Shown here in pieces: positions 17,945 through 63,562 of a DNA stretch of 64,000 bases. The DNA lies in the NCBI GenBank assembly GCA_964499225.1, contig CAZCJR010000003.1, positions 42,340 through 106,339 of the forward strand, in the 5' to 3' direction. The stretch comes from an uncultured Cellvibrionaceae bacterium. Lineage in GTDB: Bacteria > Pseudomonadota > Gammaproteobacteria > Pseudomonadales > Cellvibrionaceae. How positions within the stretch are numbered: position 1 is the first letter of the stretch; each line of letters starts with the position of its first letter. The notes beneath the pieces were generated by a model. That model saw only the letters and a program-made list of their open reading frames with translations, did not search any database and was not told the origin of the DNA. The translations under genes and the position numbers were made by a program.

Positions 17945-18121
17945 ATGGATCAAGCTAAACATAATTATTTGAAGTCGATAGATATGGATTATCGACTTCT
18001 TGTTAGAAAAATAGAAGAATTAGAATCAAAAGATAAATTAGATTCTGGTGAAGAAGAACATTTAGATGTATTGATTCAGTTAAGAGATGAAAAATTAGAT
18101 AATATAGAATTAGGAAGATGA
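17945..18121 (+). CDS. 58-aa hypothetical protein with C-terminal LRDEKLDNI motif variant (not in ORF track)
   Basis: MDQAKHNYL...LRDEKLDNIELGR*; TGA overlaps the smpB ATG. Confidence 0.6.
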   Translation: MDQAKHNYLKSIDMDYRLLVRKIEELESKDKLDSGEEEHLDVLIQLRDEKLDNIELGR

Positions 18122-18585
18122 AAGATAAAGATAAAAATAAAATTATAAATATTAAAAATAAAAAAGCCTATTTCAAATATGAAATAATGGAGAATTATGT
18201 GTCTGGTGTTCAATTAGTTGGAACAGAGATTAAATCTATAAGAACTGGTGATGTTAGTTTTACAGATGCTTATTGTTATTTTAAAGATAATGAATTGTTT
18301 TTAAAAAGTTTTCATATTTCTGAGTATGAACAAGCTTCATCATATAATTCACATGAACCAAAAAGAGATAGGAAATTACTTCTTACTAAGAAAGAACTTA
18401 AGAAATTAAGTGATAAAGTAAAAGAAGGTGGTTTAACTATTGTTCCATTAAGATTGTTTATCAATGATAGAGGTTTAGCTAAATTTGATATTGGTTTAGC
18501 TAAAGGGAAAAAATTGTATGATAAACGGGAATCAATTAAAGAAAAAGATCTTAAACGATCAGAAGATAGAAAAATAAAATTATAA
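18118..18585 (+). CDS. smpB: SsrA (tmRNA)-binding protein
   Basis: NKKAYFKY, GVQLVGTEIKSIR, RDRKLLL, GLTIVPLRLF and GKKLYDKRESIK. Confidence 0.97.
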   Translation: MKDKDKNKIINIKNKKAYFKYEIMENYVSGVQLVGTEIKSIRTGDVSFTDAYCYFKDNELFLKSFHISEYEQASSYNSHEPKRDRKLLLTKKELKKLSDKVKEGGLTIVPLRLFINDRGLAKFDIGLAKGKKLYDKRESIKEKDLKRSEDRKIKL

Positions 18586-18589
18586 TTAT

Positions 18590-19312
18590 ATGTATAAATT
18601 AATTGATACTTTTTCTGAATTTATTTTAAATGAAACATTGAAGACACACGATGTTGATTTATCTATAAAAAATATTAATACGGAATTATCGTTAATGAGA
18701 TATAATTTTGAAATATCTAAAAAAGATAATATTATAGAATTATTACTCAAAGGATTTAGATATATTCAAAATCCTCATATTTCATTAGAACATATAAATA
18801 GTTTATTTATAGATAGACACGGTTGGTACCCATCAAAAATGATATTGTTTGATTTAGTAGGTTCAAATAATATATTATCATATGATGAAGAATATTTATA
18901 TGATAAAATACAATATTTAGAAACGGTCACAATAATATATGAACCTAAATTTGATCTTCTTATAAAAAATCCTAATAAATGTTATCATTTATCAATTCAA
19001 GAATATGAAAACTCTACACTTGGTAAAGGTTTAATGCCAAAATCTAAATCCAAATTATCTAGACATTTAGATAGAATATATTTGTGTAAAGATGTATCAG
19101 ATTGTTATAATTTGATTGCAAAGATGAAAGCTGATTATATGATTAAGAAAAAGGGAAAATCAAAAATAAACACAAAATGGATAATATATGAAATAAATAT
19201 GATTGGTAAAAAAATTGATTTATATGAAGATCCAAATTATAAAGATAAAGGATTTTATTGTGTTGATAATATTGAAAAAGATAGAATAAAAATATACGAT
19301 AAAGAAATTTAA
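18590..19312 (+). CDS. Putative ADP-ribosyltransferase/KptA-fold protein with CTS-like leader
   Basis: CYHLS...GLMPK...RIYLC pattern; N-terminus MYKLIDTFSEFILNE. Confidence 0.5.
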   Translation: MYKLIDTFSEFILNETLKTHDVDLSIKNINTELSLMRYNFEISKKDNIIELLLKGFRYIQNPHISLEHINSLFIDRHGWYPSKMILFDLVGSNNILSYDEEYLYDKIQYLETVTIIYEPKFDLLIKNPNKCYHLSIQEYENSTLGKGLMPKSKSKLSRHLDRIYLCKDVSDCYNLIAKMKADYMIKKKGKSKINTKWIIYEINMIGKKIDLYEDPNYKDKGFYCVDNIEKDRIKIYDKEI

Positions 19313-19956
19313 GCTAAAATAGTAATAGATACATCATCATCAGACAAAATCGCTTTAATTTCGTCATTATTCATAAATTTCTTAAAATTGTCAGATTCTT
19401 TATCACCTGATAATTGCCAGTCATTTCCAGAATTTGAAGTCACATAAACATATGTTTTACCACCTTTTTTAATTTCGATAGATTTGTTAGTCAATTTATC
19501 ATAAAAATGTTTCATATCAGCATTTACTTTATAACACTTAACGTCATTCCAGTTAGCATCATTTCTTTTTTTACTTTGATATATTATATATTTTGGTTGT
19601 TCCAATTCAGAAGCATCTTTATCATATAAAGAGAAAAATTTAATAAGTATTGTATTATCTATGAATGTTTCTGTTTCTTCGGTTGATTCTAATTCATTCT
19701 TTTTATAATCGTCTTTAGTTAGACTTTCATTGAATTTGTCATTTTCGTATAATTCCTCAATAGAAAAATCTGATTTTATATCATCCGGATTTAAAGTAAA
19801 TGTTTGATAAAGATCAACCTCTTCAGCTTTTATACTATTTAATAAAGCATCTGAATCAGTTACAATAGATTCAAGAATATCTGCATCATTGAATATTTCA
19901 ACCATTTCTATGGCATTTTCAAATATAAATGTATTATAGTTTTTTAAATTTTTCAT
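19309..19956 (-). CDS. Hypothetical protein with CTS-like leader
   Basis: MKNLKNYNTFIFEN. Confidence 0.75.
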   Translation of the reverse strand: MKNLKNYNTFIFENAIEMVEIFNDADILESIVTDSDALLNSIKAEEVDLYQTFTLNPDDIKSDFSIEELYENDKFNESLTKDDYKKNELESTEETETFIDNTILIKFFSLYDKDASELEQPKYIIYQSKKRNDANWNDVKCYKVNADMKHFYDKLTNKSIEIKKGGKTYVYVTSNSGNDWQLSGDKESDNFKKFMNNDEIKAILSDDDVSITILA

Positions 19957-20252
19957 TTATTTATATTGGATATTTTTTTAGACATTTTATTTCTTCTTTT
20001 TAACTCATTTAAGTATATTAATGATTCTTCGTCTATGATATTACCTTTTTTATAGATATCGTCTATTAGATCTATTAAATCTTCGTTATTTGTTATTCTA
20101 TAATAGAACTCATTTAAATATTCTGGTGAATTTTCTTTTATCTTTAATTTTATAGAATTTATCAATGGTGAAATGTCATCTATATTTTTTAAGAACCATT
20201 TAGTATAATCGTCTACTAATCTACTTTCGTTATATGATTTTAAATATTTCAT
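19953..20252 (-). CDS. Hypothetical protein with CTS-like leader
   Basis: MKYLKSYNES. Confidence 0.75.
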   Translation of the reverse strand: MKYLKSYNESRLVDDYTKWFLKNIDDISPLINSIKLKIKENSPEYLNEFYYRITNNEDLIDLIDDIYKKGNIIDEESLIYLNELKRRNKMSKKISNINK

Positions 20253-20547: not shown

Positions 20548-20615
20548 AATAATTGGTTCTATTTTACATTATATATATAAAAAAACAAATACAATAAAAA
20601 ATAATATAATGATTT

Positions 20616-25549: not shown

Positions 25550-25619
25550 AACTATTATATATTAAAATTATGATGTTTAAAAAATATTTAGTATATTTGT
25601 AGAAATAAAAATAAAAAAT

Positions 25620-26454: not shown

Positions 26455-26777
26455 TTAAAAATATGAGTAATAGAGAAATGAAAGATTTATTAGTAAAATC
26501 TCATATACATATTAATAAAAAATCTCATAACTTATATAAATATGTTTTTAATATAAGTGATATTTCTATGGCTGGAGATCACATGACTTTATGGATACCA
26601 AGTGTTTATGATTTAGGATTTAGGTATGTTTTTTTTAATGATATATTGTGGAATCTTACAAAAGATTATAATGCTTATCAAACAAAATATAATTTAGTAA
26701 AAAATACTGAAGATGAAATATTAAAATTTATTATTTCAGAATTAAGAATAAAAAAATTGGAAAGAATTATAAAATGA
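26451..26777 (+). CDS. Hypothetical protein with C-terminal RxxKLxRI motif
   Basis: ends ELRIKKLERIIK*. Confidence 0.75.
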   Translation: MIKNMSNREMKDLLVKSHIHINKKSHNLYKYVFNISDISMAGDHMTLWIPSVYDLGFRYVFFNDILWNLTKDYNAYQTKYNLVKNTEDEILKFIISELRIKKLERIIK

Positions 26778-26962
26778 CAAAACTTTATACTGTGGCACAT
26801 ACTATATTTTATACATACCATGATGCTATGGTATATGCAAAATATAGATATAGTAGAGGAATGATGGATTATGAAGTTACAGTTGATAATATATACACCG
26901 AAGAAGAAAAAAAGAGAAAAAACAGAGAGAAAAAATTAAAAAGAATTTTATTTAATGGATAA
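26774..26962 (+). CDS. Hypothetical protein with C-terminal motif
   Basis: ends NREKKLKRILFNG*. Confidence 0.75.
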   Translation: MTKLYTVAHTIFYTYHDAMVYAKYRYSRGMMDYEVTVDNIYTEEEKKRKNREKKLKRILFNG

Positions 26963-28228: not shown

Positions 28229-28237
28229 ATTACTCTG
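28217..28237. terminator. Hairpin between convergent ligA and endonuclease genes
   Basis: cagagtaa-gtaaa-ttactctg followed by a T-run. Confidence 0.55.
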
Positions 28238-29623: not shown

Positions 29624-29744
29624 AATTAGAGTTTCTTTTATAGTATATATTAAATAATTAAAGTCAAAAAGTCATAATTGTGAATTATTTTTGAAATAAA
29701 ACAAAAATATTTTTTCGATATATAATAAACAAAAACTTATTTTT

Positions 29745-31845: not shown

Positions 31846-31995
31846 ATGGAAAACTTGGGTGTGTCATTTTATTATGAACTTGTTCATGATGATATGTATA
31901 AAAGTGTTTGGATTCAAGATGAATTGTATAATGAAGAAATGATAAGAAGAAAACAAAAAATTAGAGAAAAGAAATTAAAAAATATAATATTATGA
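31846..31995 (+). CDS. 49-aa hypothetical protein with C-terminal motif (not in ORF track)
   Basis: ends IREKKLKNIIL*; TGA overlaps the next ATG. Confidence 0.65.
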   Translation: MENLGVSFYYELVHDDMYKSVWIQDELYNEEMIRRKQKIREKKLKNIIL

Positions 31996-32459
31996 TATTA
32001 ACCTATGTATTTGCGTGTTTATTTGTTGCAGGATTAATTTTATCTGCATATTTATACATTATATTGAAAAAGACAAAAAGTGTTGTAGAAGTCTTAAAAA
32101 ATAGTATAAATGTTTTAAAAAATTCAATAGAAGTAGAATTAATAAAATTAAATCATAGAGAAGGTTTTTATGATGGTAGTTTTAATTTGGTTTCTGCTAA
32201 AGACGAACATCACACATACAATTATAGGCTTTATGTTTATGAAATGGAAAAATATAAAAATGGATATTCAAAATTAAAAATTCTGAAAATTGATATTGTT
32301 CGAGGTTTTGATAATAAACAATACGAATATATCAAAAAACTTGCTACTGAAAATTTCTTAGAGATACAAGAAACAAAGAATATAACATTTTTAGATAGGG
32401 ATATAGATATCACACAACTTAGAAAAGATAAATTAGAAAGAATACTTAAAGAAGAATAA
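31992..32459 (+). CDS. Membrane-anchored hypothetical protein with C-terminal motif
   Basis: N-terminal TM; ends LRKDKLERILKEE*. Confidence 0.75.
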   Translation: MILTYVFACLFVAGLILSAYLYIILKKTKSVVEVLKNSINVLKNSIEVELIKLNHREGFYDGSFNLVSAKDEHHTYNYRLYVYEMEKYKNGYSKLKILKIDIVRGFDNKQYEYIKKLATENFLEIQETKNITFLDRDIDITQLRKDKLERILKEE

Positions 32460-32460: not shown

Positions 32461-33009
32461 ATGGGATTAGATATAGGTTATGGTGTTATAAAACAGATTG
32501 ATAAAAAAGAAGATATAGATGTTCATTATGAAAATGGTGATTTTGTTATATTGAATAATAGTGGCTTTATATATCAGTTGGGTTCATTGAAACAAAATAG
32601 TGTATATGAATATTGTGGTAATGGAAGTTTTCGAGCTGGATCATATAGTGGTTATAATTCATTTAGAAAAGAATTGTTGGCTTTAGTATCAAGTGAAAAT
32701 ATAGAAGATTATTGGAAAAATAATTCAACATTTATAGAATATAGATATATTGATATGAATAGAGAAAAAAAATTAAATAATATCTTAGAAAATGGTAATT
32801 CGAAAATAAAAATAACACCATTTTTAGAACTTATTTATTTTTCAGATTGTGAAGGATTAATTGGACCAGAAATATGTGAAAAATTATATAAAGATTTCAT
32901 AAAATATAATGATGTTGCAAAAGAAAAATTGAGTGAATGGCATTATGAATTATATTGTGAATTTATGAAATCGACAAGTATTACAGGTTGTGTTCTTCAT
33001 TTTCATTAA
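32461..33009 (+). CDS. Hypothetical protein with internal RxxKLxxIL motif
   Basis: internal NREKKLNNILE; FRAGSYSGYN and FSDCEG. Confidence 0.7.
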   Translation: MGLDIGYGVIKQIDKKEDIDVHYENGDFVILNNSGFIYQLGSLKQNSVYEYCGNGSFRAGSYSGYNSFRKELLALVSSENIEDYWKNNSTFIEYRYIDMNREKKLNNILENGNSKIKITPFLELIYFSDCEGLIGPEICEKLYKDFIKYNDVAKEKLSEWHYELYCEFMKSTSITGCVLHFH

Positions 33010-35438: not shown

Positions 35439-35633
35439 ATGCAAGATATTAAAAAGATATTTGATTTAGTTGAATTGAAAAAATTGAAAAACGATGCGGC
35501 AATTAATCAAAAATATGAATTAGCTGCGATTTTAAGAGATCATGAAAGATTTTTGGAATCTGAAAAAGGTTTAGAATTTATTAATAATTGTAAAAGAGAA
35601 ATTAGAGAGAAAAAATTAAAAAGACTTTTTTAA
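35439..35633 (+). CDS. UVR-domain microprotein with C-terminal motif
   Basis: AAINQKYELAAILRD; ends IREKKLKRLF*. Confidence 0.75.
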   Translation: MQDIKKIFDLVELKKLKNDAAINQKYELAAILRDHERFLESEKGLEFINNCKREIREKKLKRLF

Positions 35634-36735: not shown

Positions 36736-37092
36736 ATGAAAATAGAAGTAGAATTAGAAGAAAGATATAAATTAACATTTGAAAATAGTAGTATGTGTAT
36801 GGGACAGTATTATGCAGAAGATGACTGGAGTATTATTGTTTATGGTAGAAGTATTATAGATGATGTATTAGAAATGAAATATCATTATAGATATAGTGAT
36901 TTACAGTATAATGGTGGTGATATAGAAAAAGTAGATGTGATATTATATGATGGTAATATTATTGAAATTCCAAATACGGAAAAAGAATATAAAGAATACA
37001 CAATGTATCAAATATATGAAATGACTTTTAAATCAACAGAAGAATTGAAACAATTATTGAGAGAAGAAAAATTAAATAGAATATTATCATGA
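36736..37092 (+). CDS. Hypothetical protein with C-terminal motif
   Basis: ends LREEKLNRILS*. Confidence 0.75.
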   Translation: MKIEVELEERYKLTFENSSMCMGQYYAEDDWSIIVYGRSIIDDVLEMKYHYRYSDLQYNGGDIEKVDVILYDGNIIEIPNTEKEYKEYTMYQIYEMTFKSTEELKQLLREEKLNRILS

Positions 37093-37304
37093 GTTGGAAA
37101 TGTAGTGTATGTTTTTATAGAGAATCCGGTATGTGTTATAATGATAAATTTGCTATAATAGAAGAAATACCATTGAATAGAAAAGGAGAAAAACTGGAAA
37201 CGGCTATAATAAAATGTGAAAATTATAGCAATAATATTAAAAATAAGAGATTATTAAAATTAAGAGAAGAAAAATTAAATAGAATATTAAAAAAAATAAA
37301 TTAA
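37089..37304 (+). CDS. Cys-rich hypothetical protein with C-terminal motif
   Basis: CSVC...C...C; ends LREEKLNRILKKIN*. Confidence 0.75.
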   Translation: MSWKCSVCFYRESGMCYNDKFAIIEEIPLNRKGEKLETAIIKCENYSNNIKNKRLLKLREEKLNRILKKIN

Positions 37305-37685: not shown

Positions 37686-38001
37686 TTTGGAAGACAAATC
37701 AAATAAAAAATTGATGAGTATGATAAATAAGAATAATATCAGAATCAGTAGATTAGAAGATATTATTAAATTTTCAAATGATTTTGATATTGAATTGTGT
37801 GAAGTTCAAAGAAATATGATTAATGATAAAATAAAATTTTATACTGAACAGGTTTATAAAATAACATATTTTATGATATGGAAAAATTATAAAGTTAAAG
37901 ATGAAAATTTTATTTGTTTTTGGGATATTAAAAAAGAAGAAGTTGAAAGATTAAGACAAAAATATAGTAGAGTAAATAAATTTAAAAGAATATTAAAATG
38001 A
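37660..38001 (+). CDS. Hypothetical protein with C-terminal motif
   Basis: ends SRVNKFKRILK*. Confidence 0.7.
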   Translation: MKSKITLSNLEDKSNKKLMSMINKNNIRISRLEDIIKFSNDFDIELCEVQRNMINDKIKFYTEQVYKITYFMIWKNYKVKDENFICFWDIKKEEVERLRQKYSRVNKFKRILK

Positions 38002-38199
38002 AAGAATTAGCAAAAGATATATGTGATAGTATTTCACACAACCTTTATAAACATGAAGATTATTATGATTACACTCAAGGAATGAGACGTTTTAATGATG
38101 ATGAAGAAAAAGAAATTCAAGAACTATATTTTAGAAAAATATGAAAATAGAAAAAGAGAAAATAAATTAAAAAGAATATTAAAGGAGGAAAAATTATGA
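37998..38199 (+). pseudogene. Frameshifted small gene; motif-bearing C-terminus lies in another frame
   Basis: Frame 0 stops at 38144; removing one A near 38113 gives ...DEEKEFKNYILEKYENRKRENKLKRILKEEKL*. Confidence 0.55.
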
Positions 38200-38480
38200 G
38201 TGTAGTAAAACAAAACGAAGTATATGTGACATATGGTAGATTTACAGATAATTCTACTTGTCAAGAGTGTAAAAAACCGGATAAATATTTAGTATTATCT
38301 GGTGGTGGTCAATTATCAAATTTGGAAGGAAATTGTTGTGATGATCATTTGAATTATTTTATAGAAGAAGGTAAAAAAACTTTATTGAAATATAAAAGAA
38401 CAGATATTAAAGTAAAATATCACAAAATAATACTTAGAGAAAATAAATTAAAAAGAATATTAAAGGAGGAAAAATTATGA
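38155..38480 (+). repeat. Perfect 45-bp direct repeat (38155-38199, 38436-38480) flanking one gene
   Basis: agagaaaataaattaaaaagaatattaaaggaggaaaaattatga occurs twice. Confidence 0.95.
38196..38480 (+). CDS. Hypothetical Cys-containing protein with C-terminal motif
   Basis: CQEC...CCDDH; ends LRENKLKRILKEEKL*; AAGGAGG 7 nt upstream. Confidence 0.8.
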   Translation: MSVVKQNEVYVTYGRFTDNSTCQECKKPDKYLVLSGGGQLSNLEGNCCDDHLNYFIEEGKKTLLKYKRTDIKVKYHKIILRENKLKRILKEEKL

Positions 38481-39492: not shown

Positions 39493-39816
39493 ATGAAAAA
39501 TAATATAATAAGAAATAAATATGGTTATGATTGTAATTTGAATAAGAAATACGGTGTTGAGTGGGGTTTATACGGTTATGAGAATGGTATAAAGACAAAA
39601 AATAAAATACATTGGTGTAATTGGAAAAGATATAATACATTATTATCATCGATTCAAGCTTATATGGATTTTACTAAAGATGGCTCTATGTATAGAGTAG
39701 TTGAAATAATCTATGATGAAAGTGAATTTCCAGGATTTTATTCTAAACCATTTGACCTTAAAATTTTAGAACGAGAAAATAAATTAAAAAGAATAAATGA
39801 AAAAAAACCTGAATAA
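39493..39816 (+). CDS. Hypothetical protein with C-terminal motif
   Basis: ends ERENKLKRINEKKPE*. Confidence 0.7.
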   Translation: MKNNIIRNKYGYDCNLNKKYGVEWGLYGYENGIKTKNKIHWCNWKRYNTLLSSIQAYMDFTKDGSMYRVVEIIYDESEFPGFYSKPFDLKILERENKLKRINEKKPE

Positions 39817-44696: not shown

Positions 44697-44883
44697 AAAT
44701 GTATATGTAAATAATAATATATTTCTTCATTGTCCAAAATGTAAAACAGCTTTTTATCCTCTAAAGGGATTTTTTGAGGATAGACAAAATTGTATTTGGT
44801 GTGGGTCAAAATATCTTGTTTTTGATAGTAGAGAAGATTATAAAAATTATTTAAGAAATTTAAAATTAAAAAGATTAACTTGA
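44689..44883 (+). CDS. Zn-ribbon microprotein with C-terminal motif
   Basis: CPKC...CIWC; ends LRNLKLKRLT*. Confidence 0.7.
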   Translation: MNKNVYVNNNIFLHCPKCKTAFYPLKGFFEDRQNCIWCGSKYLVFDSREDYKNYLRNLKLKRLT

Positions 44884-45419: not shown

Positions 45420-45700
45420 TAAGAGTTGAAACAATAGAAGATGATTTAATAATAAATAAATATTATTATGATCATGGATTCAAATGGATTTCTGTCGAAA
45501 CTTTTGAAAAATATAAAGAAAAAAGATTAAATAGAAAAGTATTCCTTGTATATTATATTTGGGATTTAGAAAGTATGAAAAAACAAAGAAATAAATTCAA
45601 TGATTCAACGATTAGAAAAAATGATATGTATGTAATGAGTTCATCAGAATATATTCAACAAATAAGACAAAAAAAATTAGAAAGAATATTAAATATTTAA
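45416..45700 (+). CDS. Hypothetical protein with C-terminal motif
   Basis: ends IRQKKLERILNI*. Confidence 0.7.
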   Translation: MIRVETIEDDLIINKYYYDHGFKWISVETFEKYKEKRLNRKVFLVYYIWDLESMKKQRNKFNDSTIRKNDMYVMSSSEYIQQIRQKKLERILNI

Positions 45701-47077: not shown

Positions 47078-47364
47078 AAATTTTTAAAGTAAGAATTGAT
47101 AACGATCCGGGAGGATGGAAATCAGGTGAAGATCACAGTGAATTAGTTTTAGCTGAAACTGAAGAAGAAGCGATCAATAAAGTAAAAAATGGTTGGGGTA
47201 ACACATATAATTATAAAAATAATTATCGAGAATATGGTATTGGTGAAAAATTTAACGCACCACATATCAGTAAATTTGCAGATATATCTGCATCGGAAAT
47301 AAAATTCGATGGTGTTGAGATAACAACAGTAAGAGAAGAAAAACTTAAAAGATTATTGAAATGA
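47074..47364 (+). CDS. Hypothetical protein with C-terminal motif
   Basis: ends VREEKLKRLLK*. Confidence 0.7.
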   Translation: MKIFKVRIDNDPGGWKSGEDHSELVLAETEEEAINKVKNGWGNTYNYKNNYREYGIGEKFNAPHISKFADISASEIKFDGVEITTVREEKLKRLLK

Positions 47365-48098
47365 AAACTAAAGTAAGATTATCTGGTACTACGAATTCTA
47401 AATTGGCTGTTGTGAAAGCACTAAAAATATATAGTGGTTTAGGTTTGAAAGATGCCAAAGATGCTTGTGATAATTTTCTTTATGATTTAAAAAAATATTT
47501 TGAATTTGAAATGGAACAATCTTTGGTATCAACAGCTAAAATAGAGTTTGAATCATTCGGTATAAAATTTAATATACAGAATTCAAGAGAACAAAAAATG
47601 AAAAGAATATTATATGCAGATCAAACTATGTGTATAAAAGATTTAATGAATGATGTTTCTCATTGGGAAACATTGGGAGTTATATCAGAAGAAGATAAAG
47701 AAAAACTTACGTATAATCAGTGTAGAGAAAAAGCTGTTGAAATAATATATGATAGATATGCGGAATATATTAAGGGTGATAAATTTTCTCAATTATATAA
47801 AGATGTTAGAAAAATAAATAATAAAGAACAAAAATCTATCGAATTAAAAATTTTAAAATTTAATAAAGAATTTGGTGAATTTGTTAATGAGTTTATGAAG
47901 TTTAATGAATATGAATATAAATCTTTGTATAATAAATCTGAACTCAGAACAGAAATGGTTGATGTTTTACAAGTTTTGATGTCAATATATAATCAAATAG
48001 AAGATGAAAGTGGTATCACTATGAGTGAGATTTTACAAGATATGGTTGATAAGAATAAAAAATGGTTAAATGAGATTAACAACGATGTAATAAATTAA
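47361..48098 (+). CDS. Ribosomal L7/L12 CTD-like domain + internal motif + MazG-like domain
   Basis: KLAVVKALKIYSGLGLKDAKD; SREQKMKRIL; KEFGEFVNE...TEMVDVL. Confidence 0.6.
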   Translation: MKTKVRLSGTTNSKLAVVKALKIYSGLGLKDAKDACDNFLYDLKKYFEFEMEQSLVSTAKIEFESFGIKFNIQNSREQKMKRILYADQTMCIKDLMNDVSHWETLGVISEEDKEKLTYNQCREKAVEIIYDRYAEYIKGDKFSQLYKDVRKINNKEQKSIELKILKFNKEFGEFVNEFMKFNEYEYKSLYNKSELRTEMVDVLQVLMSIYNQIEDESGITMSEILQDMVDKNKKWLNEINNDVIN

Positions 48099-48616: not shown

Positions 48617-50641
48617 ATGAATATAAAAAAAGATGTTAGTAGTAAAATACTCGAAAAAGATATATTATTTAATGTAGTTAAGAAACAATTAAAAGAAGAA
48701 TATATTGGTTTAGATGATGTTATAGATGAAATATGTAATTTAGTAGAACCTTGGTATTTATTTCCTAATGCTCAATTAAGACCAACTATTATAAATCTTT
48801 GGGGATTAACTGGTGTAGGTAAAACGAGTCTTATTATAAGAATGTTTTCGTTATTGGGAATTAATAATTTATTAAAGTTTGATACTGGTGAGTGGGTTGA
48901 TAAAGATGATTTTCAATTAACTGAAAAAATATCTGGTCAATTGAATAAGCTTAAAAAAGATAATATGATACCTATATTTGTATTTGATGAATTTCAACTT
49001 GGTAGAACAAAAAATGAAATAGGTGTAGAAATAGATAGAACAAGTTTAAGAGTCGTTTGGGATTTATTAGATTCTGGTAAATTTAATATAATTGAAGAAA
49101 AATGGGAAACATCAAGTATAATGAAACTATATAAGAAATTACAATATCTCTTATATGATAAAAATGTTATTGTTAAATGTGGTCGAGTGACTAATAAAAA
49201 AGAAGATTGGGATTTAATATTTGTGGAAGAAGATAGTGATGAAATGGTATCAAATGATATTACAGAAATAATAAATAAATATTATTCTGAAGATGCTTTT
49301 ATACCGTCAGCTTATTTATATACTTTAAGAACTATGAATGATGATATTTTTTATTCTGAGGTTGAAGTGGCTAAATATTTATTGACTTTAAGTGGAGATG
49401 AAATATTGACCTTTATCGAAAAAAGTATAGTGAAATCTACTGTTCCAATAGAACATGATTTTTCAGATTCTATTATATTTATTATTGGTAATTTAGACAA
49501 AGCATATTACAATAGTGATGAAATGGATCCAGATGTTGATGCTGATTCATTATATGAACACACAAAAAAGATAACACTATCCGATATTAAAAAAACTTTG
49601 ACACATCTATATAGACCTGAACAAATTTCACGGTTGGGTAATAATCATGTTATTTATAAATCTTTCAATAAAAAAATGTATCAAGATATAATTAAAATGG
49701 AATTGAATAAAATTGTGGATAGAGTATCTATGAAATTTGATTTTAATATAAATTTTGATAGTTCTATAAATGATTTAATTTATACTGAGTCTGTTTTTCC
49801 AACACAAGGTGTAAGACCAATATTTTCTACAATTACATCATTAATAGAATCATATATTGGTAGAATCGTTGTAAATTCTTTAAAAAATAAATTGGATATT
49901 ATATCATTGAATTGGAGTTATTTAAATGAAGAATATATAATAAAGTTAAATACTACAACAGTTGATAAAATTTTAAAATATAAAGTTGTGTTGAAGATTG
50001 ATAATGTTAGAAAGTCTAAAACAGATGATATGCAAGCACTTGTAGGAATACATGAAGCTGGTCACGTTATAACATCTATTTATGCTTTAAATCTTTTACC
50101 AAGAAGTGTGTTGAGTAGAACCGCTAATGGTAATGGTGGTGTAACTTTTATTGATTTACCTGATTATGAAACAAAAGAATTATTAATCAATAGTATTATT
50201 ATGTTGATTGGTGGTTACACGGCAGAAAAAATGATATTTGGTGATAATAATTTAACAAGTGGATCATATTCTGATTTGGAACATACAACTAAAACAGCTT
50301 TAAAAATAGTTAAAGAATATGGTATGAATGGTATTCCATTGCAATTTTCTACACCAGATTTTAGAATAAGTGATAGTTCTATATGTCTTAATAATGATGA
50401 TTTAGATCTAAGTGCAATAGAATTGGTAAAAAAATGTCAAACGAAAACAGAACAAATATTGAATGATAATATGGTATTGTTGCTTCGAATGGGAGAATAT
50501 CTTACGAATAATTCAAAAATGAATTCAGATGAAATAAAAAAAATGGTTGAAAAATACGGTAGTAAAAAGCCAATATATAAAACCAAAGATAATTATTTCG
50601 ATTATAAAAAAGTATTAATGGATAAAATAAAAAAAATATGA
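48617..50641 (+). CDS. Soluble AAA+ ATPase fused to peptidase M41 (FtsH-type) domain
   Basis: GLTGVGKT (Walker A), FVFDEFQ (Walker B), ISRLG, QGVRP; HEAGH, GGYTAEKMIFG and SGSYSDL; no TM segments. Confidence 0.85.
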   Translation: MNIKKDVSSKILEKDILFNVVKKQLKEEYIGLDDVIDEICNLVEPWYLFPNAQLRPTIINLWGLTGVGKTSLIIRMFSLLGINNLLKFDTGEWVDKDDFQLTEKISGQLNKLKKDNMIPIFVFDEFQLGRTKNEIGVEIDRTSLRVVWDLLDSGKFNIIEEKWETSSIMKLYKKLQYLLYDKNVIVKCGRVTNKKEDWDLIFVEEDSDEMVSNDITEIINKYYSEDAFIPSAYLYTLRTMNDDIFYSEVEVAKYLLTLSGDEILTFIEKSIVKSTVPIEHDFSDSIIFIIGNLDKAYYNSDEMDPDVDADSLYEHTKKITLSDIKKTLTHLYRPEQISRLGNNHVIYKSFNKKMYQDIIKMELNKIVDRVSMKFDFNINFDSSINDLIYTESVFPTQGVRPIFSTITSLIESYIGRIVVNSLKNKLDIISLNWSYLNEEYIIKLNTTTVDKILKYKVVLKIDNVRKSKTDDMQALVGIHEAGHVITSIYALNLLPRSVLSRTANGNGGVTFIDLPDYETKELLINSIIMLIGGYTAEKMIFGDNNLTSGSYSDLEHTTKTALKIVKEYGMNGIPLQFSTPDFRISDSSICLNNDDLDLSAIELVKKCQTKTEQILNDNMVLLLRMGEYLTNNSKMNSDEIKKMVEKYGSKKPIYKTKDNYFDYKKVLMDKIKKI

Positions 50642-50748: not shown

Positions 50749-51132
50749 AGATTTTATGAAATTAATGGTGAGATATTAACAAAAATTATAAATCCAACTG
50801 GTGGATTAAAAGATTGGTTAATTTCTAATGGTTTGAATCCAAATAAATATAGTGTTTTGGATAGCCCAGTTGGTGTTTTGAGGTATTGTATCAATAATAA
50901 AGATTCTATGATTAAAGGTAGTATTTGGTCAAAAAATATTAAACCTGATTCATATGATATATCTGATATAGATATAGAAGAATTGGAATGTTGTTCATCT
51001 ATTATTTTTATTTTTAAAAATCCATTTGATTCTGATTCAGAATTGAGAATTACACCAATTGTTGATAGTGATTCTGTCGTTAGGTTTTCAAGATATAAAA
51101 AATTAAGAAGAGTATTATGTCAATTAAACTAA
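50737..51132 (+). CDS. Hypothetical protein with C-terminal motif
   Basis: ends SRYKKLRRVLCQLN*. Confidence 0.7.
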   Translation: MSDIRFYEINGEILTKIINPTGGLKDWLISNGLNPNKYSVLDSPVGVLRYCINNKDSMIKGSIWSKNIKPDSYDISDIDIEELECCSSIIFIFKNPFDSDSELRITPIVDSDSVVRFSRYKKLRRVLCQLN

Positions 51133-51803
51133 CAAAAATATTATCATATGATATGATAACAAAAATATTATCATATGATATGATGAATCCAGGATTTTCG
51201 AATGCTTCTTTTAATGAGTTGTTATCAAGTGATGCTATAAAATACTTTTCTGATAAATTTTCAAATAATTATAAAGGTAAAGGTGTTATTAAAAAATTTC
51301 CAGTTGGTTTAAATTCACATTTTATGAATTTATTATTTAATATTGTTGATTATGAAAGATGTAAAAAGAATGATGGTCATTTATTAGATATCTTAATAGT
51401 TGATAATAGTAATGTTATGTCTAAACAAACAGAAGATTGTTTTTTCGATCATTATGTAAATAAGTTGGTTAATCGTAAAAAATCACAATTATTTTTAGAT
51501 AATTGTGAAATAGAATTCACAACATCTCAAAAATTAAAAAATCAGAGACATTATTTATTATCAAATTTATTATCAAGTGATCCGGTTGACCTTGTTATAT
51601 TCATTGATTGTGTTGAAAAAAATTTAAAAAATGAATTAACATATAGAAAAAAAATAAATGGTGAACCATTAGTAAAAACTATATATTGTAACGATGTTGA
51701 TGTAGATAGTGATTTTTATTTTGAAGATTTAAATAAGTGGTCAAATGAATCATATAAAAAACTTTTAAGAATAGATAAATTAAAAAGAATTTTAAATGAT
51801 TGA
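51117..51803 (+). CDS. Hypothetical protein with C-terminal motif
   Basis: ends LRIDKLKRILND*. Confidence 0.7.
   Translation: MSIKLTKILSYDMITKILSYDMMNPGFSNASFNELLSSDAIKYFSDKFSNNYKGKGVIKKFPVGLNSHFMNLLFNIVDYERCKKNDGHLLDILIVDNSNVMSKQTEDCFFDHYVNKLVNRKKSQLFLDNCEIEFTTSQKLKNQRHYLLSNLLSSDPVDLVIFIDCVEKNLKNELTYRKKINGEPLVKTIYCNDVDVDSDFYFEDLNKWSNESYKKLLRIDKLKRILND
51130..51183 (+). repeat. Perfect 27-bp tandem duplication
   Basis: taacaaaaatattatcatatgatatga x2. Confidence 0.95.
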
Positions 51804-51996
51804 GTATTTTAAAAATATTAAAGGAGTGAAAATATATACAGATGAATATATGGAAGAAGATAAAATTATTAGAGGAATAAAAGGGAATACTATTTATTTT
51901 GTCGCTAATCCAAAAACAGGAAATTATTGGTATGCTGAATATAAAAAATATTTAAGAGTAAAAAAATTAGAAAGAATTTTAAATGGAATTGATTGA
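51796..51996 (+). CDS. Hypothetical protein with C-terminal motif
   Basis: ends LRVKKLERILNGID*. Confidence 0.7.
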   Translation: MIEYFKNIKGVKIYTDEYMEEDKIIRGIKGNTIYFVANPKTGNYWYAEYKKYLRVKKLERILNGID

Positions 51997-52276
51997 AACA
52001 AATATAAAAACTGATGAAACAGTTGATCACGTTACTGGAGAAAAATACACTGAAGTAATTAGAAGTTGGAAAGTAAAAATTGATAATGTAATATATGTAA
52101 GATGTTTAAATAAAAAAGGTGTTGAATGGTATGATGAGACTCCACAAATGAATTATTTATTCGGGTTAAATACAACTTCTTCATCGTCAACATACTTAGA
52201 ATCTAAATATTCTAATAATCAATTAGAATCATTTTTCAAAACAATGTTTAGAAAGAAAAAATTAGAAAGGTTATGA
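51983..52276 (+). CDS. Hypothetical protein with C-terminal motif
   Basis: ends FRKKKLERL*. Confidence 0.7.
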   Translation: MELIETNIKTDETVDHVTGEKYTEVIRSWKVKIDNVIYVRCLNKKGVEWYDETPQMNYLFGLNTTSSSSTYLESKYSNNQLESFFKTMFRKKKLERL

Positions 52277-53176: not shown

Positions 53177-53299
53177 ATGGAAGCATATATTGATATCGAA
53201 TGGATAATGAAAAATATTTTAAAATATAGTGATAGTGATATAAGAGAACATAAGAGAAAAATAAGAGAAGATAAATTAAAAAGAATATTAGGCTTATGA
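53177..53299 (+). CDS. 40-aa protein with C-terminal motif (not in ORF track)
   Basis: ends IREDKLKRILGL*; ATGA overlap with the next gene. Confidence 0.65.
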   Translation: MEAYIDIEWIMKNILKYSDSDIREHKRKIREDKLKRILGL

Positions 53300-53568
53300 C
53301 AATTTATGACCAAAAATTAGAAGAATTTAAAAATGAATTAAAACAATATTTGAGAAGTGTTACTGATGTAAATTTGTATTATAGAATTATTAAAATTAAC
53401 ATTAAATTACAACAGGATGTAGATAGAATGAATTTATATGATTTTCTTGTTAAGGATGAAGGTGGTTGGTTAAGAATATATTTTCATTTTAGAAAAGGTG
53501 GACAACCAGTATGGTTAGATGATATACTCACACAAAGAAGAAATAAATTGGAAAGGATATTAAAATGA
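53296..53568 (+). CDS. Hypothetical protein with C-terminal motif
   Basis: ends QRRNKLERILK*. Confidence 0.7.
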   Translation: MTIYDQKLEEFKNELKQYLRSVTDVNLYYRIIKINIKLQQDVDRMNLYDFLVKDEGGWLRIYFHFRKGGQPVWLDDILTQRRNKLERILK

Positions 53569-54308: not shown

Positions 54309-54580
54309 AAGATAGTATTTTATTTTTATTAAATAAATATAAAAATGATGAAGTTGGGTTTAAAGAAGCTTATATGTCGTTAGATATGCCTTTTAAAAAA
54401 TCTGAAAGAGAACTATTAGAAAATATAGAGGATGAATTATTAGCACAATTCTCAGAAGATATTGCATACGGAATAGATAAACATATTTTATCTGAACTTA
54501 TTTGGATGTGTAAAGATGATTATCTTAGAAAGGGATTAAGAAAATATAAATTAAATAGAATTTTAGATGGAAAGAAATAA
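54305..54580 (+). CDS. Hypothetical protein with C-terminal motif
   Basis: ends LRKYKLNRILDGKK*. Confidence 0.7.
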   Translation: MKDSILFLLNKYKNDEVGFKEAYMSLDMPFKKSERELLENIEDELLAQFSEDIAYGIDKHILSELIWMCKDDYLRKGLRKYKLNRILDGKK

Positions 54581-54589: not shown

Positions 54590-55340
54590 CTATTTTTTCA
54601 TATGAGAACATATTTCTTCTAACCAACCTTGTGATTTTGATCTTTTAAATGACCCTGGTGAATTTTTTTCAAAATGAGTTTTTACTATATTTTAATGATT
54701 CATTTTTACAATTTTCATAATTCCATTTTATATAAACACCACCTAAATTACCAGTTTTTGATTTATTTAAAATGTTCCAACCATTATTTTTATATTCATT
54801 GAGTATTTCTCCTTCTTTGTTAGATGCTAATTCTACATCGATATACTCTGTTATTTTTCTCAAATATGGTTGTAAATTAGTTTCTAATATATGTTTATAT
54901 ACCGAACTTCTTTTATCTCTTAAATGCCTATTATTTCTATCATTAATGTTAAATGTTAAACCAACATACACATAATTATCACTAAATTCATATGAATATA
55001 TACATCTTTTATATTTATGTCCAATTGTTATCATATGAACACAAATATCATCTAAAAAATTGTTAATATATGCAGAGTTATATGCAGATGTAGATTTTTT
55101 TTGAAATTCAGATTTTGTTTTGTATTTTAATGATTCTTCTTGACATTTCTCTTTTGTCCAATAATTAGATTTCTTTTTTATTTCTATCATATGTTTACAT
55201 ATATCATCTAACCAATTGTTTATATATGATTTATAATATGAACCTTTGGAATTTTTTTGAAATTCAAACCTGGTATTATATTTTAATGATTCTTCTTGAC
55301 ATTTCTCTTTGGTCCAATAATTTCTATTTTTTCTTATCAT
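54590..55340 (-). mobile_element. GIY-YIG homing endonuclease-like gene, paralog of 28230-29453, frameshifted in its last repeat
   Basis: YWTKEKCQEESLKY repeats; CIYSYEF..YVYVGLT; stop at 54669, but EKNSPGSF..GWLEEICSHMKK* continues in another frame to 54590. Confidence 0.75.
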
Positions 55341-55417
55341 TTCTATTTTTTCTTATTTTATAATCTTTTTTTTGTTTATAGTATATATTAAAAACAAACA
55401 TCTACATTTTTGGGAAT

Positions 55418-55453
55418 AAAAAAAGACGATAAATTTAAATTTATCGTCTTTTT
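55418..55453. terminator. Perfect palindromic terminator downstream of csp
   Basis: aaaaaagacgataaattt/aaatttatcgtctttttt with flanking A/T runs. Confidence 0.75.
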
Positions 55454-55473
55454 TTGTAATTGAAATATAGATA

Positions 55474-57425: not shown

Positions 57426-57971
57426 TTATTGTTTCTTTTTTGGTCTTATGAACATTATCATTTTTTTACCTTCTAATATAGGTGTAACGTTATCTGGTGT
57501 TCCGACATCACTTAATTCATTTGCAAGACGAAGAAGTATTATTTCTCCTTTTTCTTTGAATTTTATTTCTCTACCTTTAAAAAATACACACGCTTTAACT
57601 ATATCATTTCTTTTTAAGAATGTGTCGGCATGTTTTAATTTGAAATTGAAATCATGATCATCTATATTTGGTCCGAATTTTATTTCTTTAATTTCTTGTG
57701 CATTTTCTTTTTGTTTTTTATCTTGATCTTTTTGTTTCTTTTTTAATTCATATAAAAATTTATTATAATCTATTAATTTGCATATTGGTGGAACTACATT
57801 ACTATTTATTTCTACTAAATCTACACCTAAATTTTCAGCCATATTCAATGCATCTCTTAATGATAATACAGAACCACTGTTTTCTATGTCGCCAATCAAT
57901 CTTATTTCATTAGATCTAATAAATTGATTTATTTTGTGAGTAATTTCTTTTTTTAATATTTTTTTTGCCAT
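57426..57971 (-). CDS. infC: Translation initiation factor IF-3
   Basis: IN..IR..EIRL, DLVEI, PPICKLIDYNKF, KEIKF..NIDDHDF..K and FKGRE. Confidence 0.95.
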   Translation of the reverse strand: MAKKILKKEITHKINQFIRSNEIRLIGDIENSGSVLSLRDALNMAENLGVDLVEINSNVVPPICKLIDYNKFLYELKKKQKDQDKKQKENAQEIKEIKFGPNIDDHDFNFKLKHADTFLKRNDIVKACVFFKGREIKFKEKGEIILLRLANELSDVGTPDNVTPILEGKKMIMFIRPKKKQ

Positions 57972-61736: not shown

Positions 61737-61764
61737 TCCTGTATCTTTATTTTTTTATTATATA

Positions 61765-62550
61765 TTAAATATTAATTTCATTTTTTAATATTCTTTGTAA
61801 TTTCAATTTTCTATAAAACATTTTACCATTTCCAAATATAGTATTGAGTTTCAATAATTTAACATCACCTAACATACAATTAAGTGTGATTACACCTCTT
61901 TTCATATAGTTTGGAATCTTTTCATATAGATCATCTGGTCCAAAAATATTACTAAAATCTTCTTTTATATATTCATTGTATCTTATATCAATAGTATTTA
62001 GATCTATATATGAATAATTACTCATATAAATATGTTCCAATTTTTCAATATAGAAAAACTTTATACATTTATATTCACCAATACAACCATTACGTATATG
62101 AATATCTTCAATAAGATGTTTCATGAATGGAATACAATTATCACCAAAATATAAATATTTTATTGATTCTAATTGATAATTATTCGCATCATCCATATTA
62201 TCTCGTTTATGTTCAATAACATAATCAAGATATTCTTTTATTTCTATACTTGATGAAAGAGATAATTGATTTGTTAGATAGATATTATTAATTTTGAATG
62301 GTTCTATTTTTGTTATAGCTGAATAAATTAAAGATTCTATTGATTCGTCAATTGTCATATCTATAACATCATCTTCTGTCACACCTGTATTTTCTAAATC
62401 ATATTCATATTTTACTCGAATCATATTCTTAGTGAATGGGATATTTAAAAATCCTTCAAAATTTTCTATATCATCTTTTATTTTATTTGTTAATTTATTG
62501 TTAATATATTCAGCCTTTTCTGAATAATATTCTTTTGTTGTTTCTATCAT
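61765..62550 (-). CDS. Hypothetical protein with C-terminal motif
   Basis: ends YRKLKLQRILKNEINI*. Confidence 0.7.
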   Translation of the reverse strand: MIETTKEYYSEKAEYINNKLTNKIKDDIENFEGFLNIPFTKNMIRVKYEYDLENTGVTEDDVIDMTIDESIESLIYSAITKIEPFKINNIYLTNQLSLSSSIEIKEYLDYVIEHKRDNMDDANNYQLESIKYLYFGDNCIPFMKHLIEDIHIRNGCIGEYKCIKFFYIEKLEHIYMSNYSYIDLNTIDIRYNEYIKEDFSNIFGPDDLYEKIPNYMKRGVITLNCMLGDVKLLKLNTIFGNGKMFYRKLKLQRILKNEINI

Positions 62551-62624
62551 AATTATTTGAATTTATTTTTTTAATTGATATTATTTGTATATATTTGTAA
62601 TTATAATGTTTAAAATATAAAAAT

Positions 62625-63278
62625 ATGAACATAACTCTATCAGAAGCATTAAAACTCAATATTGATAATAAATTTCAAGTTGAAACATTATTAAAAACTA
62701 AAGAAGAAGTTGATAAAATAAATAAATTTTATCCTTGTGAATGTTTTTGTGAAGTACATAAAAATTCAAATGATGGATATTATTTAGATCATACAGATAT
62801 ATTTTTAATAAATGATGTGTGTAAGATTAGAATAAATTATAGTAGTTATACTAAGAAATATTCAATCTATTATAATTCAAATTTTAATAATATATTGGAT
62901 CATAATAAAATAAGTGAAGTTAGAAAAAAATTTAAAGAACCACAAAAAATTGGTGTGTTAACTACTAAGAAGATTGAAAATTGGATTAAACATGAACAAA
63001 ATGTATATTTGGCTCTTGCTAAAGAAGATGAAAGATTAACGAATAATGTTGAAAATTTCTTAAAAACATTAATCGGTGAAGATGTTAAATGGTATAATAA
63101 CAATAAATCTGGTGAAATAGTTAGAAATGGTGTTAGATATAGTTTTAGTATTGATAAAGGTTACGTTAGTCAAAAAGTTGAATTACATTATGGTGTTGAA
63201 AATACATTAGAATCATTCAGATTATTATCTGATAATAAAATAAATAGAGTAAGTAAATTAGAAAGAATCACAAAATGA
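62625..63278 (+). CDS. Hypothetical protein with C-terminal motif
   Basis: ends NRVSKLERITK*. Confidence 0.7.
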   Translation: MNITLSEALKLNIDNKFQVETLLKTKEEVDKINKFYPCECFCEVHKNSNDGYYLDHTDIFLINDVCKIRINYSSYTKKYSIYYNSNFNNILDHNKISEVRKKFKEPQKIGVLTTKKIENWIKHEQNVYLALAKEDERLTNNVENFLKTLIGEDVKWYNNNKSGEIVRNGVRYSFSIDKGYVSQKVELHYGVENTLESFRLLSDNKINRVSKLERITK

Positions 63279-63562
63279 AAACTAAAATAGGGCATTATTA
63301 CATTTTTTTCTCAGAAGTAGAATTTTGGAAAAAAGTAAACTATTGGAAATCTAAAGGTCGAACTTGGATTCAAGAAAGTCATGAGAATTATAATCCAAAA
63401 GTAAAACAAGAAGATATGCCTTGTGTGTTAAATGTTGATGATTATTATATGATTCAGGGTAAGGTTCATTCTAATGAAAAATTATATTTTTCTGATCCAA
63501 CTTTTGTAAAATTGTATAATAAAACATTAAGAGAATTAAAAATTAAAAGAATATTAAAATAA
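63275..63562 (+). CDS. Hypothetical protein with C-terminal motif
   Basis: ends LRELKIKRILK*. Confidence 0.7.
   Translation: MKTKIGHYYIFFSEVEFWKKVNYWKSKGRTWIQESHENYNPKVKQEDMPCVLNVDDYYMIQGKVHSNEKLYFSDPTFVKLYNKTLRELKIKRILK

Follow-up and report, generated by a model that had tools for sequence, protein, structure and literature searches.

A C-terminal peptide motif shared by unrelated small proteins of putative large uncultured phages overlaps the initiation region of the next gene

Small proteins with unrelated bodies end in the same short peptide, R-x-x-K-L-x-R-I-L, in a 64,000-nt stretch of DNA (the window; positions 42,340 to 106,339 of contig CAZCJR010000003.1, assembly GCA_964499225.1, deposited under an uncultured Cellvibrionaceae bacterium). 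Gene content and the kinship of its clamp loader to those of huge and Lak phages, both detailed below, place the window in a large, AT-rich, uncultured phage. The motif, hereafter the tag, is real, sits at the C terminus, is selected as a peptide, doubles as the initiation region of the next gene, and is absent from close relatives. It is a clade-wide feature with genome-specific dialects, found on hundreds of proteins, a breadth that an earlier note on this DNA, made from its sequence alone, could not have foreseen. A common address or docking label appears to be the best available reading; from the observations below we infer that the tag docks to one partner and has spread through recombination.

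The ORFs at all 28 starts listed in the earlier note were translated, and the regular expression R..K[LIFMV].[RK][ILVMF] was scored at no more than 17 residues from the C terminus (an example tag peptide of 15-20 residues is KKYLRVKKLERILN). A clear R-x-x-K-[LIFM]-x-R-[ILV]-[ILF..] end, 0 to 6 residues before the stop codon, was found in 22 open reading frames (ORFs), of which 21 lie on the plus strand and one on the minus strand. Among the 111 called genes, 23 matched the expression at the C terminus, versus a mean of 0.08 (maximum, 2) upon shuffling within proteins, 0.18 (maximum, 3) upon shuffling the last 25 residues, and 0 in reversed proteins. This comparison with a shuffled null, which the earlier note had proposed, confirmed the shared C-terminal motif. 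At the DNA level, the pattern AGAN6AAATTARAWAGAATWTTA had 10 matches in the window versus 0 in 100 dinucleotide-preserving shuffles, and a 27-nt position weight matrix (score >14) returned 24 plus-strand matches and 1 minus-strand match, all in the reading frame of an ORF and none intergenic. Between 26 and 64 kb, the tag was carried by 22/45 plus-strand genes versus 1/30 minus-strand genes (Fisher p = 2e-5). The tagged proteins of the window had a median length of 95 aa; no similarity was detected by BLAST between any two of their bodies, and a Pfam and PHROGs search of 10 of them gave no family match, and none over the tag.

Of the 26 C-terminal copies claimed by the earlier note, the 22 clear ones and a variant in ORF 31846 stood, whereas that in ORF 17945 is degenerate, ORF 36415 is doubtful, being overlapped by a longer minus-strand ORF, and the copy at ORF 37998 lies out of frame. 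Its remaining descriptive points held: two internal copies (ORFs 32461 and 47361), one minus-strand case (61765-62550), unrelated bodies, and no tagged ORF with an N-terminal leader of the MKxLKxFE type, which resembles the capsid-targeting sequence (CTS) of phage T4. The instances are given below; residues between tag and stop codon follow a plus sign.

26745..26771, plus strand: RIKKLERII, ORF 26451-26777; the stop overlaps the next ATG (AAATGA)
26924..26950, plus strand: REKKLKRIL+FNG, ORF 26774-26962
31963..31989, plus strand: variant REKKLKNII+L, ORF 31846-31995; N in place of R7
32421..32447, plus strand: RKDKLERIL+KEE, ORF 31992-32459; transmembrane-like N-terminal segment in the body
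32761..32787, plus strand: internal tag-like copy REKKLNNIL in ORF 32461-33009
35604..35630, plus strand: REKKLKRLF and stop, ORF 35439-35633; last gene of a plus-strand block, then a convergent gene
37060..37086, plus strand: REEKLNRIL+S, ORF 36736-37092
37263..37289, plus strand: REEKLNRIL+KKIN, ORF 37089-37304
37969..37995, plus strand: RVNKFKRIL+K, ORF 37660-38001
38155..38199 (tag 38155-38181), plus strand: out-of-frame (+1) copy RENKLKRILKEEKL and stop, behind the truncated ORF 37998-38144; upstream arm of a 45-nt repeat
38436..38480, plus strand: RENKLKRILKEEKL and stop, ORF 38196-38480; downstream arm of the 45-nt repeat, containing AAGGAGG, the Shine-Dalgarno sequence of the next gene
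39772..39798, plus strand: RENKLKRIN+EKKPE, ORF 39493-39816; end of a plus-strand block, then a terminator-like hairpin
44854..44880, plus strand: RNLKLKRLT and stop, ORF 44689-44883
45665..45691, plus strand: RQKKLERIL+NI, ORF 45416-45700; then a convergent gene
47332..47358, plus strand: REEKLKRLL+K, ORF 47074-47364; modelled as a separate helix (residues 86-95) and kept by 14 orthologues
47586..47612, plus strand: internal REQKMKRIL between L7/L12-CTD-like and MazG domains, ORF 47361-48098
51091..51117, plus strand: RYKKLRRVL+CQLN, ORF 50737-51132
51768..51794, plus strand: RIDKLKRIL+ND, ORF 51117-51803; next ATG within AAT GAT
51955..51981, plus strand: RVKKLERIL+NGID, ORF 51796-51996; next start (51983) within AAT GGA
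52250..52273, plus strand: RKKKLERL and stop, ORF 51983-52276
53264..53290, plus strand: REDKLKRIL+GL, 40-aa ORF 53177-53299
53536..53562, plus strand: RRNKLERIL+K, ORF 53296-53568; AGG at R7
54539..54565, plus strand: RKYKLNRIL+DGKK, ORF 54305-54580; then a convergent gene
61786..61812, minus strand: RKLKLQRIL+KNEINI, ORF 61765-62550; sole minus-strand tag, with an untagged homologue in the related contig L192
63246..63272, plus strand: RVSKLERIT+K, ORF 62625-63278
63530..63556, plus strand: RELKIKRIL+K, ORF 63275-63562
18083..18109, plus strand: doubtful, degenerate RDEKLDNIE, ORF 17945-18121; fits only the loose R..KL..I core of distant relatives

Three loci deserve comment. ORF 37998 stops at 38144, and bringing its tag back into frame takes the gain or loss of 1 nt within or beside a run of A or T (38105-38140); this could reflect an assembly error, a pseudogene, or a programmed frameshift. 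The product of ORF 47361-48098 is a fusion of an N-terminal module like the C-terminal domain of L7/L12, the internal tag, and a MazG/dUTPase-like pyrophosphohydrolase domain, so that it looks like a tagged gene fused with its downstream neighbor. Between the tagged ORFs 53296-53568 and 54305-54580, a second D12 adenine methyltransferase (53565-54308, plus strand) ends in the degenerate, tag-like KRIEKIFKVK, and its 84% identical orthologue in contig L055 ends similarly in KRIEKLYKVK. An alternative genetic code, with TGA read as sense and the tags as internal linkers, was rejected because in-frame TAA or TAG codons follow a few codons on and the large enzymes are intact in code 11.

Beyond the window, instances were collected by scanning JGI and ENA metagenome contigs with the DNA pattern, which returned at least 120 stretches, many of them with several copies, and by then applying the peptide expression to these loci. 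At least 409 C-terminal tags among at least 488 in-ORF matches were recovered, and at least 65 loci held two or more. The densest arrays comprised 40 tagged genes in 10.6 kb (L039), 27 in 7.2 kb (L136), and 16 in 4.6 kb (L124). Many of the tag-bearing contigs are related to the phage of the window, sharing replication genes or a protease of the AAA-M41 type at 50-72% identity. The nonredundant tagged ORFs numbered at least 387 (median, 87 aa among the matches listed), and their bodies fell into at least 285 BLAST clusters, at least 237 of them singletons, with small expanded paralogue families within the arrays. A single expanded paralogous family is ruled out by these clusters, which include Tad3, LRR, VWA/DUF7788, and L12-like domains. 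Pfam analysis of 58 further, longer tagged proteins from other contigs found no family spanning the tag; the domains detected were one Tad3 Thoeris inhibitor (78 bits, L128), one LRR, one DUF7788/VWA, and one weak S77, and on this basis the tagged repertoire resembles accessory and counter-defence genes. Among the matches listed, the logo reads [Y/L/F] at -4, [Y/L/I] at -1, and [L/I/M] at 0, followed by a core of R1, [E/K/Q]2, [K/E/D]3, K4, L5, [K/E/N]6, R7, I8, L9, and [K/N]10, and then the stop or a short tail. Individual genomes use their own dialects, such as the near-invariant KLERILK of L039, and a looser one, R-x-x-K-L-x-x-[I/L] with longer tails, was found on about 15 genes of the more distant phage-like contig L188.

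A scan of the representative bacterial and archaeal genomes of GTDB gave isolated chance matches, apart from two contigs with arrays in a 'Ca. Muiribacterium' metagenome-assembled genome (MAG); one of them has tags identical to those of a landfill metagenome contig, and both are probably misbinned. No tags were found in 41-kb samples of the huge phages LR756501, LR756502, and Lak-A2, and a first pattern scan of IMG/VR gave two single matches only. A tag profile run against an index of 5.8 billion proteins yielded 52 candidates, none scored, and against 1.84 billion representatives only the window's own proteins passed E = 0.001. A profile search of PDB sequences gave a single chance-level match (E = 0.77), and neither the motif string nor shared C-terminal phage motifs turned up a description in the searchable literature. 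With nothing over the tag in Pfam, PHROGs, PDB sequences, or that literature, the earlier statement that no function has been described still stands. The relative L192, which is syntenic with the window for IF3, exonuclease, and clamp loader, serves as a natural negative control. It has a lower GC content (21.8%, versus 23.9% for the window) and genes packed as tightly, yet none of its 24 small genes carries a tag, and its homologue of the 61765 product ends without one. AT bias therefore fails to explain the motif, and chance or codon bias is ruled out by L192 together with the protein and dinucleotide shuffles.

Selection acts on the peptide. Codons were counted by a leave-one-out procedure: a given position was scored only in tags that the remaining positions identified and that fell outside the search pattern. 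Arg1 was encoded by AGA (210), AGG (22), CGA (12), and CGT (7), versus 7 cases of Lys AAA, and Leu5 by TTA (150), CTT (39), CTA (21), and TTG (14), versus 17 of Ile and 8 of Phe. Leu5 was thus kept in genomes whose most frequent NTN codons are ATT and ATA. Codon usage within the tag was similar to that of gene bodies, except that AGG was in excess at Arg7, as were Leu codons ending in G at Leu9. In L039, the 40 tags draw on all six Leu codons at Leu9, ATA, ATT, and ATC at Ile8, and three codons at Leu5, while KLERILK is almost invariant; this synonymous variety within one genome rules out DNA homogenization, and, together with the locking of the motif to the reading frame, it eliminates a pure DNA repeat. 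In 111 pairs of homologues with 42% identity between their bodies, R, L, and I residues of the tag that agreed within a pair were specified by different codons in 43% of cases, a codon figure unaffected by the collection expression, which does inflate the amino acid identity figure. Among the 14 orthologues of the 47074 product, R87 and K90 never vary and L91 hardly varies. These data bear out the earlier claim that synonymous variation preserves the amino acids.

The nucleotides of the tag carry a second layer of information, which the earlier note had overlooked. In the proportions given in this paragraph, which are among the matches listed, the ATG of the next gene began at the second or third nucleotide (+1/+2) after the Leu9 codon in 215/387 tags (56%) and within -4 to +5 nt in about 74%. 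The residue at position 10 is determined by this embedded or overlapping ATG: it is K where stop and start overlap (AAA-TGA), and N followed by G, E, D, or V where the ATG is embedded (AAT-Gnn), whatever the tail length. Arg7 was encoded by AGG in 35% of tags versus 8% in gene bodies, and the bias was stronger with an ATG at +1/+2 (41%) than otherwise (18%); codon 6 and this AGG form a Shine-Dalgarno-like GAAAGGA about 7 nt before the ATG. The AGG bias and the fixed ATG spacing therefore mean that codons 6-8 and position 10 are conserved in part at the RNA level. Nevertheless, five tags of the window stand at the end of plus-strand blocks with a convergent gene next (35613, 39781, 45674, 54548, and 63539), so that no gene need follow for a tag to be present. 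Finally, a perfect 45-nt direct repeat (38155-38199 and 38436-38480) flanks the gene at 38196-38480, its upstream arm following the frameshifted ORF; this repeated junction may be active in recombination.

The earlier suggestion that the tag is helical agrees with an AlphaFold2 model of the 47074 product, built with the 14-member orthologue alignment. The model (predicted local distance difference test, 88) shows a beta-rich body scoring above 90, an irregular linker (residues 77-85), and, at residues 86-95, the tag as a terminal helix of its own with somewhat lower confidence. A PDB fold search with the body gave no match. On a helical wheel drawn from the logo, R1, K4, L5, R7, I8, L9, and the hydrophobic position 0 share one face of about 200 degrees, opposite the variable positions 2, 3, and 6. 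Judged from the logo, such an invariant face would fit a helix that docks into a partner. A membrane-targeting amphipathic helix of the MinD/FtsA type is unlikely on the same reasoning, since R1 and K4 interrupt the hydrophobic arc at its center and the sequence is more specific than such a helix would require.

Taken together, these features lead us to propose, at about an even chance of being right, that [YLI]-[LIM]-R-x-x-K-L-x-R-I-L is a lineage-specific C-terminal docking or recognition helix by which accessory proteins engage a single common partner. In this reading the tag is a short helix at the C terminus, with a linker between it and the folded body, and in this clade of large, AT-rich uncultured phages as many as half of the small accessory proteins bear it. 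Its conserved face (R1, K4, L5, R7, I8, and L9) would most likely dock these unrelated proteins onto the partner, for which an AAA+ unfoldase or protease (the phage AAA-M41 or a host ClpX-type enzyme), another hub, or a packaging or localization receptor are candidates. The same 27-35 nt contain the ribosome-binding region of the next gene, with a Shine-Dalgarno-like RAAAGRA in codons 6-8 and an ATG 1-2 nt past codon 9, and the tag sequence repeated at junctions could offer homology for cassette exchange, through which unrelated ORFs would acquire the same tag. A fuller version, which we consider less likely than not, is that the junction of about 30 nt is three things in one: an address helix for a dedicated receptor, the ribosome-binding site and start context of the downstream gene, and a portable recombination joint. 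Several points weigh against the docking proposal. No partner was found for the tag, and the phage AAA-M41 is not specifically co-distributed with it. The downstream gene, with its Shine-Dalgarno sequence and start codon, can explain some of the conservation of codons 6-8 and position 10, and genome dialects could in part arise from differences in Shine-Dalgarno strength instead of receptor co-evolution. Collection by DNA pattern and peptide expression inflates conservation at the positions these specify, which the leave-one-out and codon analyses correct in part. Lastly, in the most distant 47074 orthologues the motif drifts to RKAKLDRI[EDQ]K with longer tails while the helix is kept, so that the tag may have begun as an ordinary structural helix.

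The second coding layer raises the question of whether the peptide matters at all. It could be the functionless read-through of a conserved initiation region (Shine-Dalgarno-like GAAAGGA, AU-rich spacer, and stop-overlapping ATG) or of a recombination junction of the promoter-early stem-loop (PeSL) type, an account that we consider improbable. The position of the next ATG, the identity of residue 10, which is exactly what an embedded ATG requires, the five-fold, ATG-dependent excess of AGG at Arg7 over gene bodies, and the 45-nt repeat around one gene would all follow from it. Yet an initiation region cannot explain the conservation of Lys4, that of Arg1, which lies 27 nt upstream of the ATG and is kept through CGN codons, or that of Leu5 and Leu9, which are kept via CTN/TTR switches while the commoner ATN and TTY codons are avoided. 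Nor does it accommodate the scrambling of synonymous sites inside one genome, the five block-end tags, the lack of intergenic or out-of-frame copies in the window bar one frameshifted gene, or the equally packed, AT-richer L192, from which the motif is absent. It thus fails as a full explanation but describes a real second layer. Both layers would be accounted for if the basic peptide acted within the exit tunnel, slowing release or recycling so that the same ribosome reinitiates at the overlapping start. The tag lies within about 10-17 residues of the stop codon and hence inside the tunnel at termination, stop/start overlaps are the rule, and the phage encodes its own IF3. The five tags lacking a downstream gene speak against such a nascent-chain effect, however, as do the internal copies in fusion proteins and the tails of 2-8 residues, which put the stop 8-25 nt past the ATG; moreover, we know of no similarity between the tag and known arrest peptides. 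We therefore give this idea equally little weight.

Other alternatives concern what the peptide would address. The earlier note had named the AAA-M41 protease of the phage as the enzyme for which the tag might be a degron:

48617..50641, plus strand: soluble AAA+/M41 protease with an HEAGH motif and no N-terminal transmembrane segment; candidate receptor only

Timed destruction of early accessory proteins by this enzyme, or by host ClpXP or FtsH, is conceivable though unlikely. The protease gene lies inside the tagged block, its homologues are 59-65% identical in the tag-bearing L129, L033, L087, and L191, all sampled tag-bearing relatives that cover the region have it, and in L191 a ClpP-family gene (15361-16125) stands between tagged genes. 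ClpX recognizes C-terminal signals that are basic and hydrophobic, such as the MuA-type C-motif 2 RRKKAI and the SspB XB tail LRVVK-COOH, the latter of which we take, as a lead only, to resemble the RILK-COOH end of the tag. However, AAA-M41 has 715 homologues, on contigs up to 614 kb, and is far more widespread than the tag: protease-bearing contigs at 48% (L192), 41%, and 38% identity had 0 tags in 22 kb or 32-39 genes each, and one at 63% had six. By this pattern the tag is a younger addition within the protease-bearing group, gained between the nodes at 63% and 48% AAA-M41 identity, which is compatible with the protease as receptor but lends it no specific support. Among the matches listed, 38% of tags end as RIL-K-COOH and 4% at L9, the rest having tails of 2-8 residues. 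Also against a degron, the tag can stand as far as 8 residues from the C terminus, two window copies are internal, in fusion proteins, and rapid turnover would bring no obvious gain to a sponge-type Tad3 homologue. Of the earlier view of the tag as an address label, peptide selection, unrelated bodies, a separate helix, and the want of any description were retained, but not the specific protease link. Least probable of all, in our estimate, is a packaging or injection signal that loads diverse counter-defence proteins into the capsid for entry with the DNA, like the T4 CTS or encapsulin cargo peptides. Its appeal lies in the diverse internal proteins of T4, which have only their targeting sequence in common (PMC3012670), in the one tagged protein of the anti-defence family Tad3, and in the very diverse bodies and paralogue arrays that an arms race predicts. 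The genome, however, already has a separate class of proteins with a T4-CTS-like N-terminal leader, mutually exclusive with the tag, which makes the latter less likely to be a packaging signal; in addition, tagged genes lie among replication and nucleotide-metabolism genes, outside any structural module, and no L/I-x-E protease site is in register. This second shared label, MK-x-[LI]-K-x-[FYW]-[EN] or MIKNWK-x-F (e.g., MKYLKSFE, MKHLKKFE, and MKTIKNWKSF), opens no fewer than 13 small proteins, most of them encoded on the minus strand, and it also occurs in the tag-less L192 (MKHIKLFEDF and MKLKRFNKFN).

N-terminal leader proteins, start positions and strands: 19956(-), 20252(-), 20547(-), 23813(+), 40290(-), 40534(-), 40792(-), 41263(-), 41533(-), 43084(-), 45939(-), 60563(-), 61086(-)

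Known systems offer partial precedents for a common docking label. The CTS of T4 is an N-terminal peptide of about 10 residues (MKTYQEFIAE-like) that the prohead protease removes. It is conserved across highly diverse small internal proteins, several of them anti-defence (PMC3012670), and is the closest precedent for the tag. As in the T4 set (IPI/II/III, Alt, etc.), a short peptide is the sole common feature of diverse, fast-evolving small phage proteins, and the window phage also has T4-like replication genes (gp44-type clamp loader). In contrast to the CTS, the tag is basic and C-terminal (0-8 residues from the end), has no N-terminal equivalent in reversed proteins, and places Leu5 and Glu6 next to each other, out of the L-x-E register, with Lys at position 6 in 50% of tags among the matches listed. 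For the junction, the closest precedent is the PeSL of T4-type phages, intergenic promoter-early stem-loop junctions that mediate modular shuffling (PMC2839356, PMC4122927). Like the tag, PeSL are short repeats that bound small accessory genes in hyperplastic regions, hold expression signals for the next gene, and provide homology for cassette gain or loss; the ATG placement, the Shine-Dalgarno-like AGG bias, and the 45-nt repeat described above are PeSL-like traits. Unlike these intergenic promoter/terminator elements, the tag lies in frame within coding sequence, conserves its peptide while its synonymous sites are scrambled, and carries a ribosome-binding region instead of a promoter or stem-loop. 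ClpX tethering and degron peptides are likewise short, basic and hydrophobic, and near the C terminus, and dock diverse proteins onto one AAA+ machine, but the tag has a longer helical core (9-11 residues), tolerates tails of 0-8 residues and internal positions in fusions, is only putatively a docking element, and is not specifically co-distributed with the phage-encoded AAA-M41. Encapsulin cargo-loading peptides, poxvirus PRANC/F-box tails, oomycete RxLR, and Plasmodium PEXEL each direct a diverse repertoire to a single receptor or pathway by one short motif; the logic is that proposed for the tag, by analogy only, as sequences, organisms, and machineries are unrelated.

The genomic setting comprises a 17-kb sugar-modification cluster (TylF-type methyltransferase, DegT aminotransferase, and GDP-mannose dehydratase with a LAGLIDADG insert), replication and translation genes (NAD-dependent ligase, 5'-3' exonuclease, gp44-type clamp loader, and IF3), two D12 methyltransferases, a NUDIX protein, an HNH protein, and the AAA+/M41 protease. 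By clamp loader, the nearest deposited phages are the huge phages LR756501/3 (735 kb) and LR756502 (642 kb) and Lak phages, at 27-36% identity. The AAA-M41 protein is encoded with identical sequence on the groundwater metagenome contig ERZ909576, and a search for RNA runs holding the window sequence matched only DNA runs from groundwater. Homologues of window proteins are filed under the MAG names Ca. Dojkabacteria, Ignavibacteria, and Nanoarchaeota (P0003/L189, P0027, and P0124), a conflict that probably stems from phage contigs binned with cellular genomes. The IF3 gene (57426-57971, minus strand; IF3_N and IF3_C, E = 1e-23 to 1e-28) adjoins the exonuclease and clamp loader genes, an arrangement kept in L044, L078, and L192. 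The GDP-mannose 4,6-dehydratase (14819-17119, plus strand; 447 bits) matches in several stretches split by an insert of about 400 aa with LAGLIDADG and helix-turn-helix signatures, probably an intein or homing-endonuclease insertion. Beside tagged genes, L188 carries at 10641-15265 a type III glutamine synthetase, an aminotransferase, and a TnpB/Cas12f-like gene.

Repeats and noncoding signals also abound in the window. Two GIY-YIG-like proteins (28230-29453 and 54669-55340, both minus strand; motif CIYVYEF...YVGLT) are flanked by 2-6 tandem modules of about 52 aa (NYWTKEKC-EE-LKY-TK-EF...W-D-IC-HM; DNA repeat families D1, D2, and D4). The adjacent proteins 29985-30545 and 30567-31835 (plus strand) share a near-identical signal-peptide-like N terminus, MKKLIMM[IM]TLMMCFV, and the second has three PKD domains encoded by 240-nt DNA repeats (D18). 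The gap upstream of ORF 39493 (39425-39473) includes a perfect inverted repeat, about 20 bp long and with more GC than is usual in this genome (TATAGTGTCTGGGACGGATAAA...TTTATCCGTCCCAGACACTATA), and the terminator-like hairpin CCTGAAT-AAA-ATTCAGG plus T run (39808-39830) overlaps the stop of the same ORF, where plus- and minus-strand blocks converge. A promoter-like motif, TTAATATATAAT, with variants such as TATATATA, occurs 15-40 nt upstream of many gene starts on both strands, often in both orientations within divergent gaps, and does not distinguish tagged from untagged blocks.

Promoter-like motif, example intergenic gaps: 20548-20615, 25550-25619, 29624-29744, 29931-29984, 43085-43133, 43791-43841, 46557-46648, 55341-55473, 61737-61764

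Most small accessory genes of large phages are ORFans that offer little by which to study them, and a tag common to hundreds of their products, used as peptide bait, would be a single handle on this repertoire, including at least one member of an anti-defence family. If a receptor exists, its discovery would show by what means these large phages sort, time, or deliver their effectors, and the tag could predict effector sets straight from metagenomes. If the three-in-one junction is true, an ORF that came to lie between two junctions would gain both expression and an address in one step, a plug-and-play way to build and turn over the host-takeover and counter-defence effector repertoire. Collectively, a protein-level signal that overlaps the initiation region of the next gene represents a clear case of natural dual coding and suggests a route by which new phage genes may be recruited.

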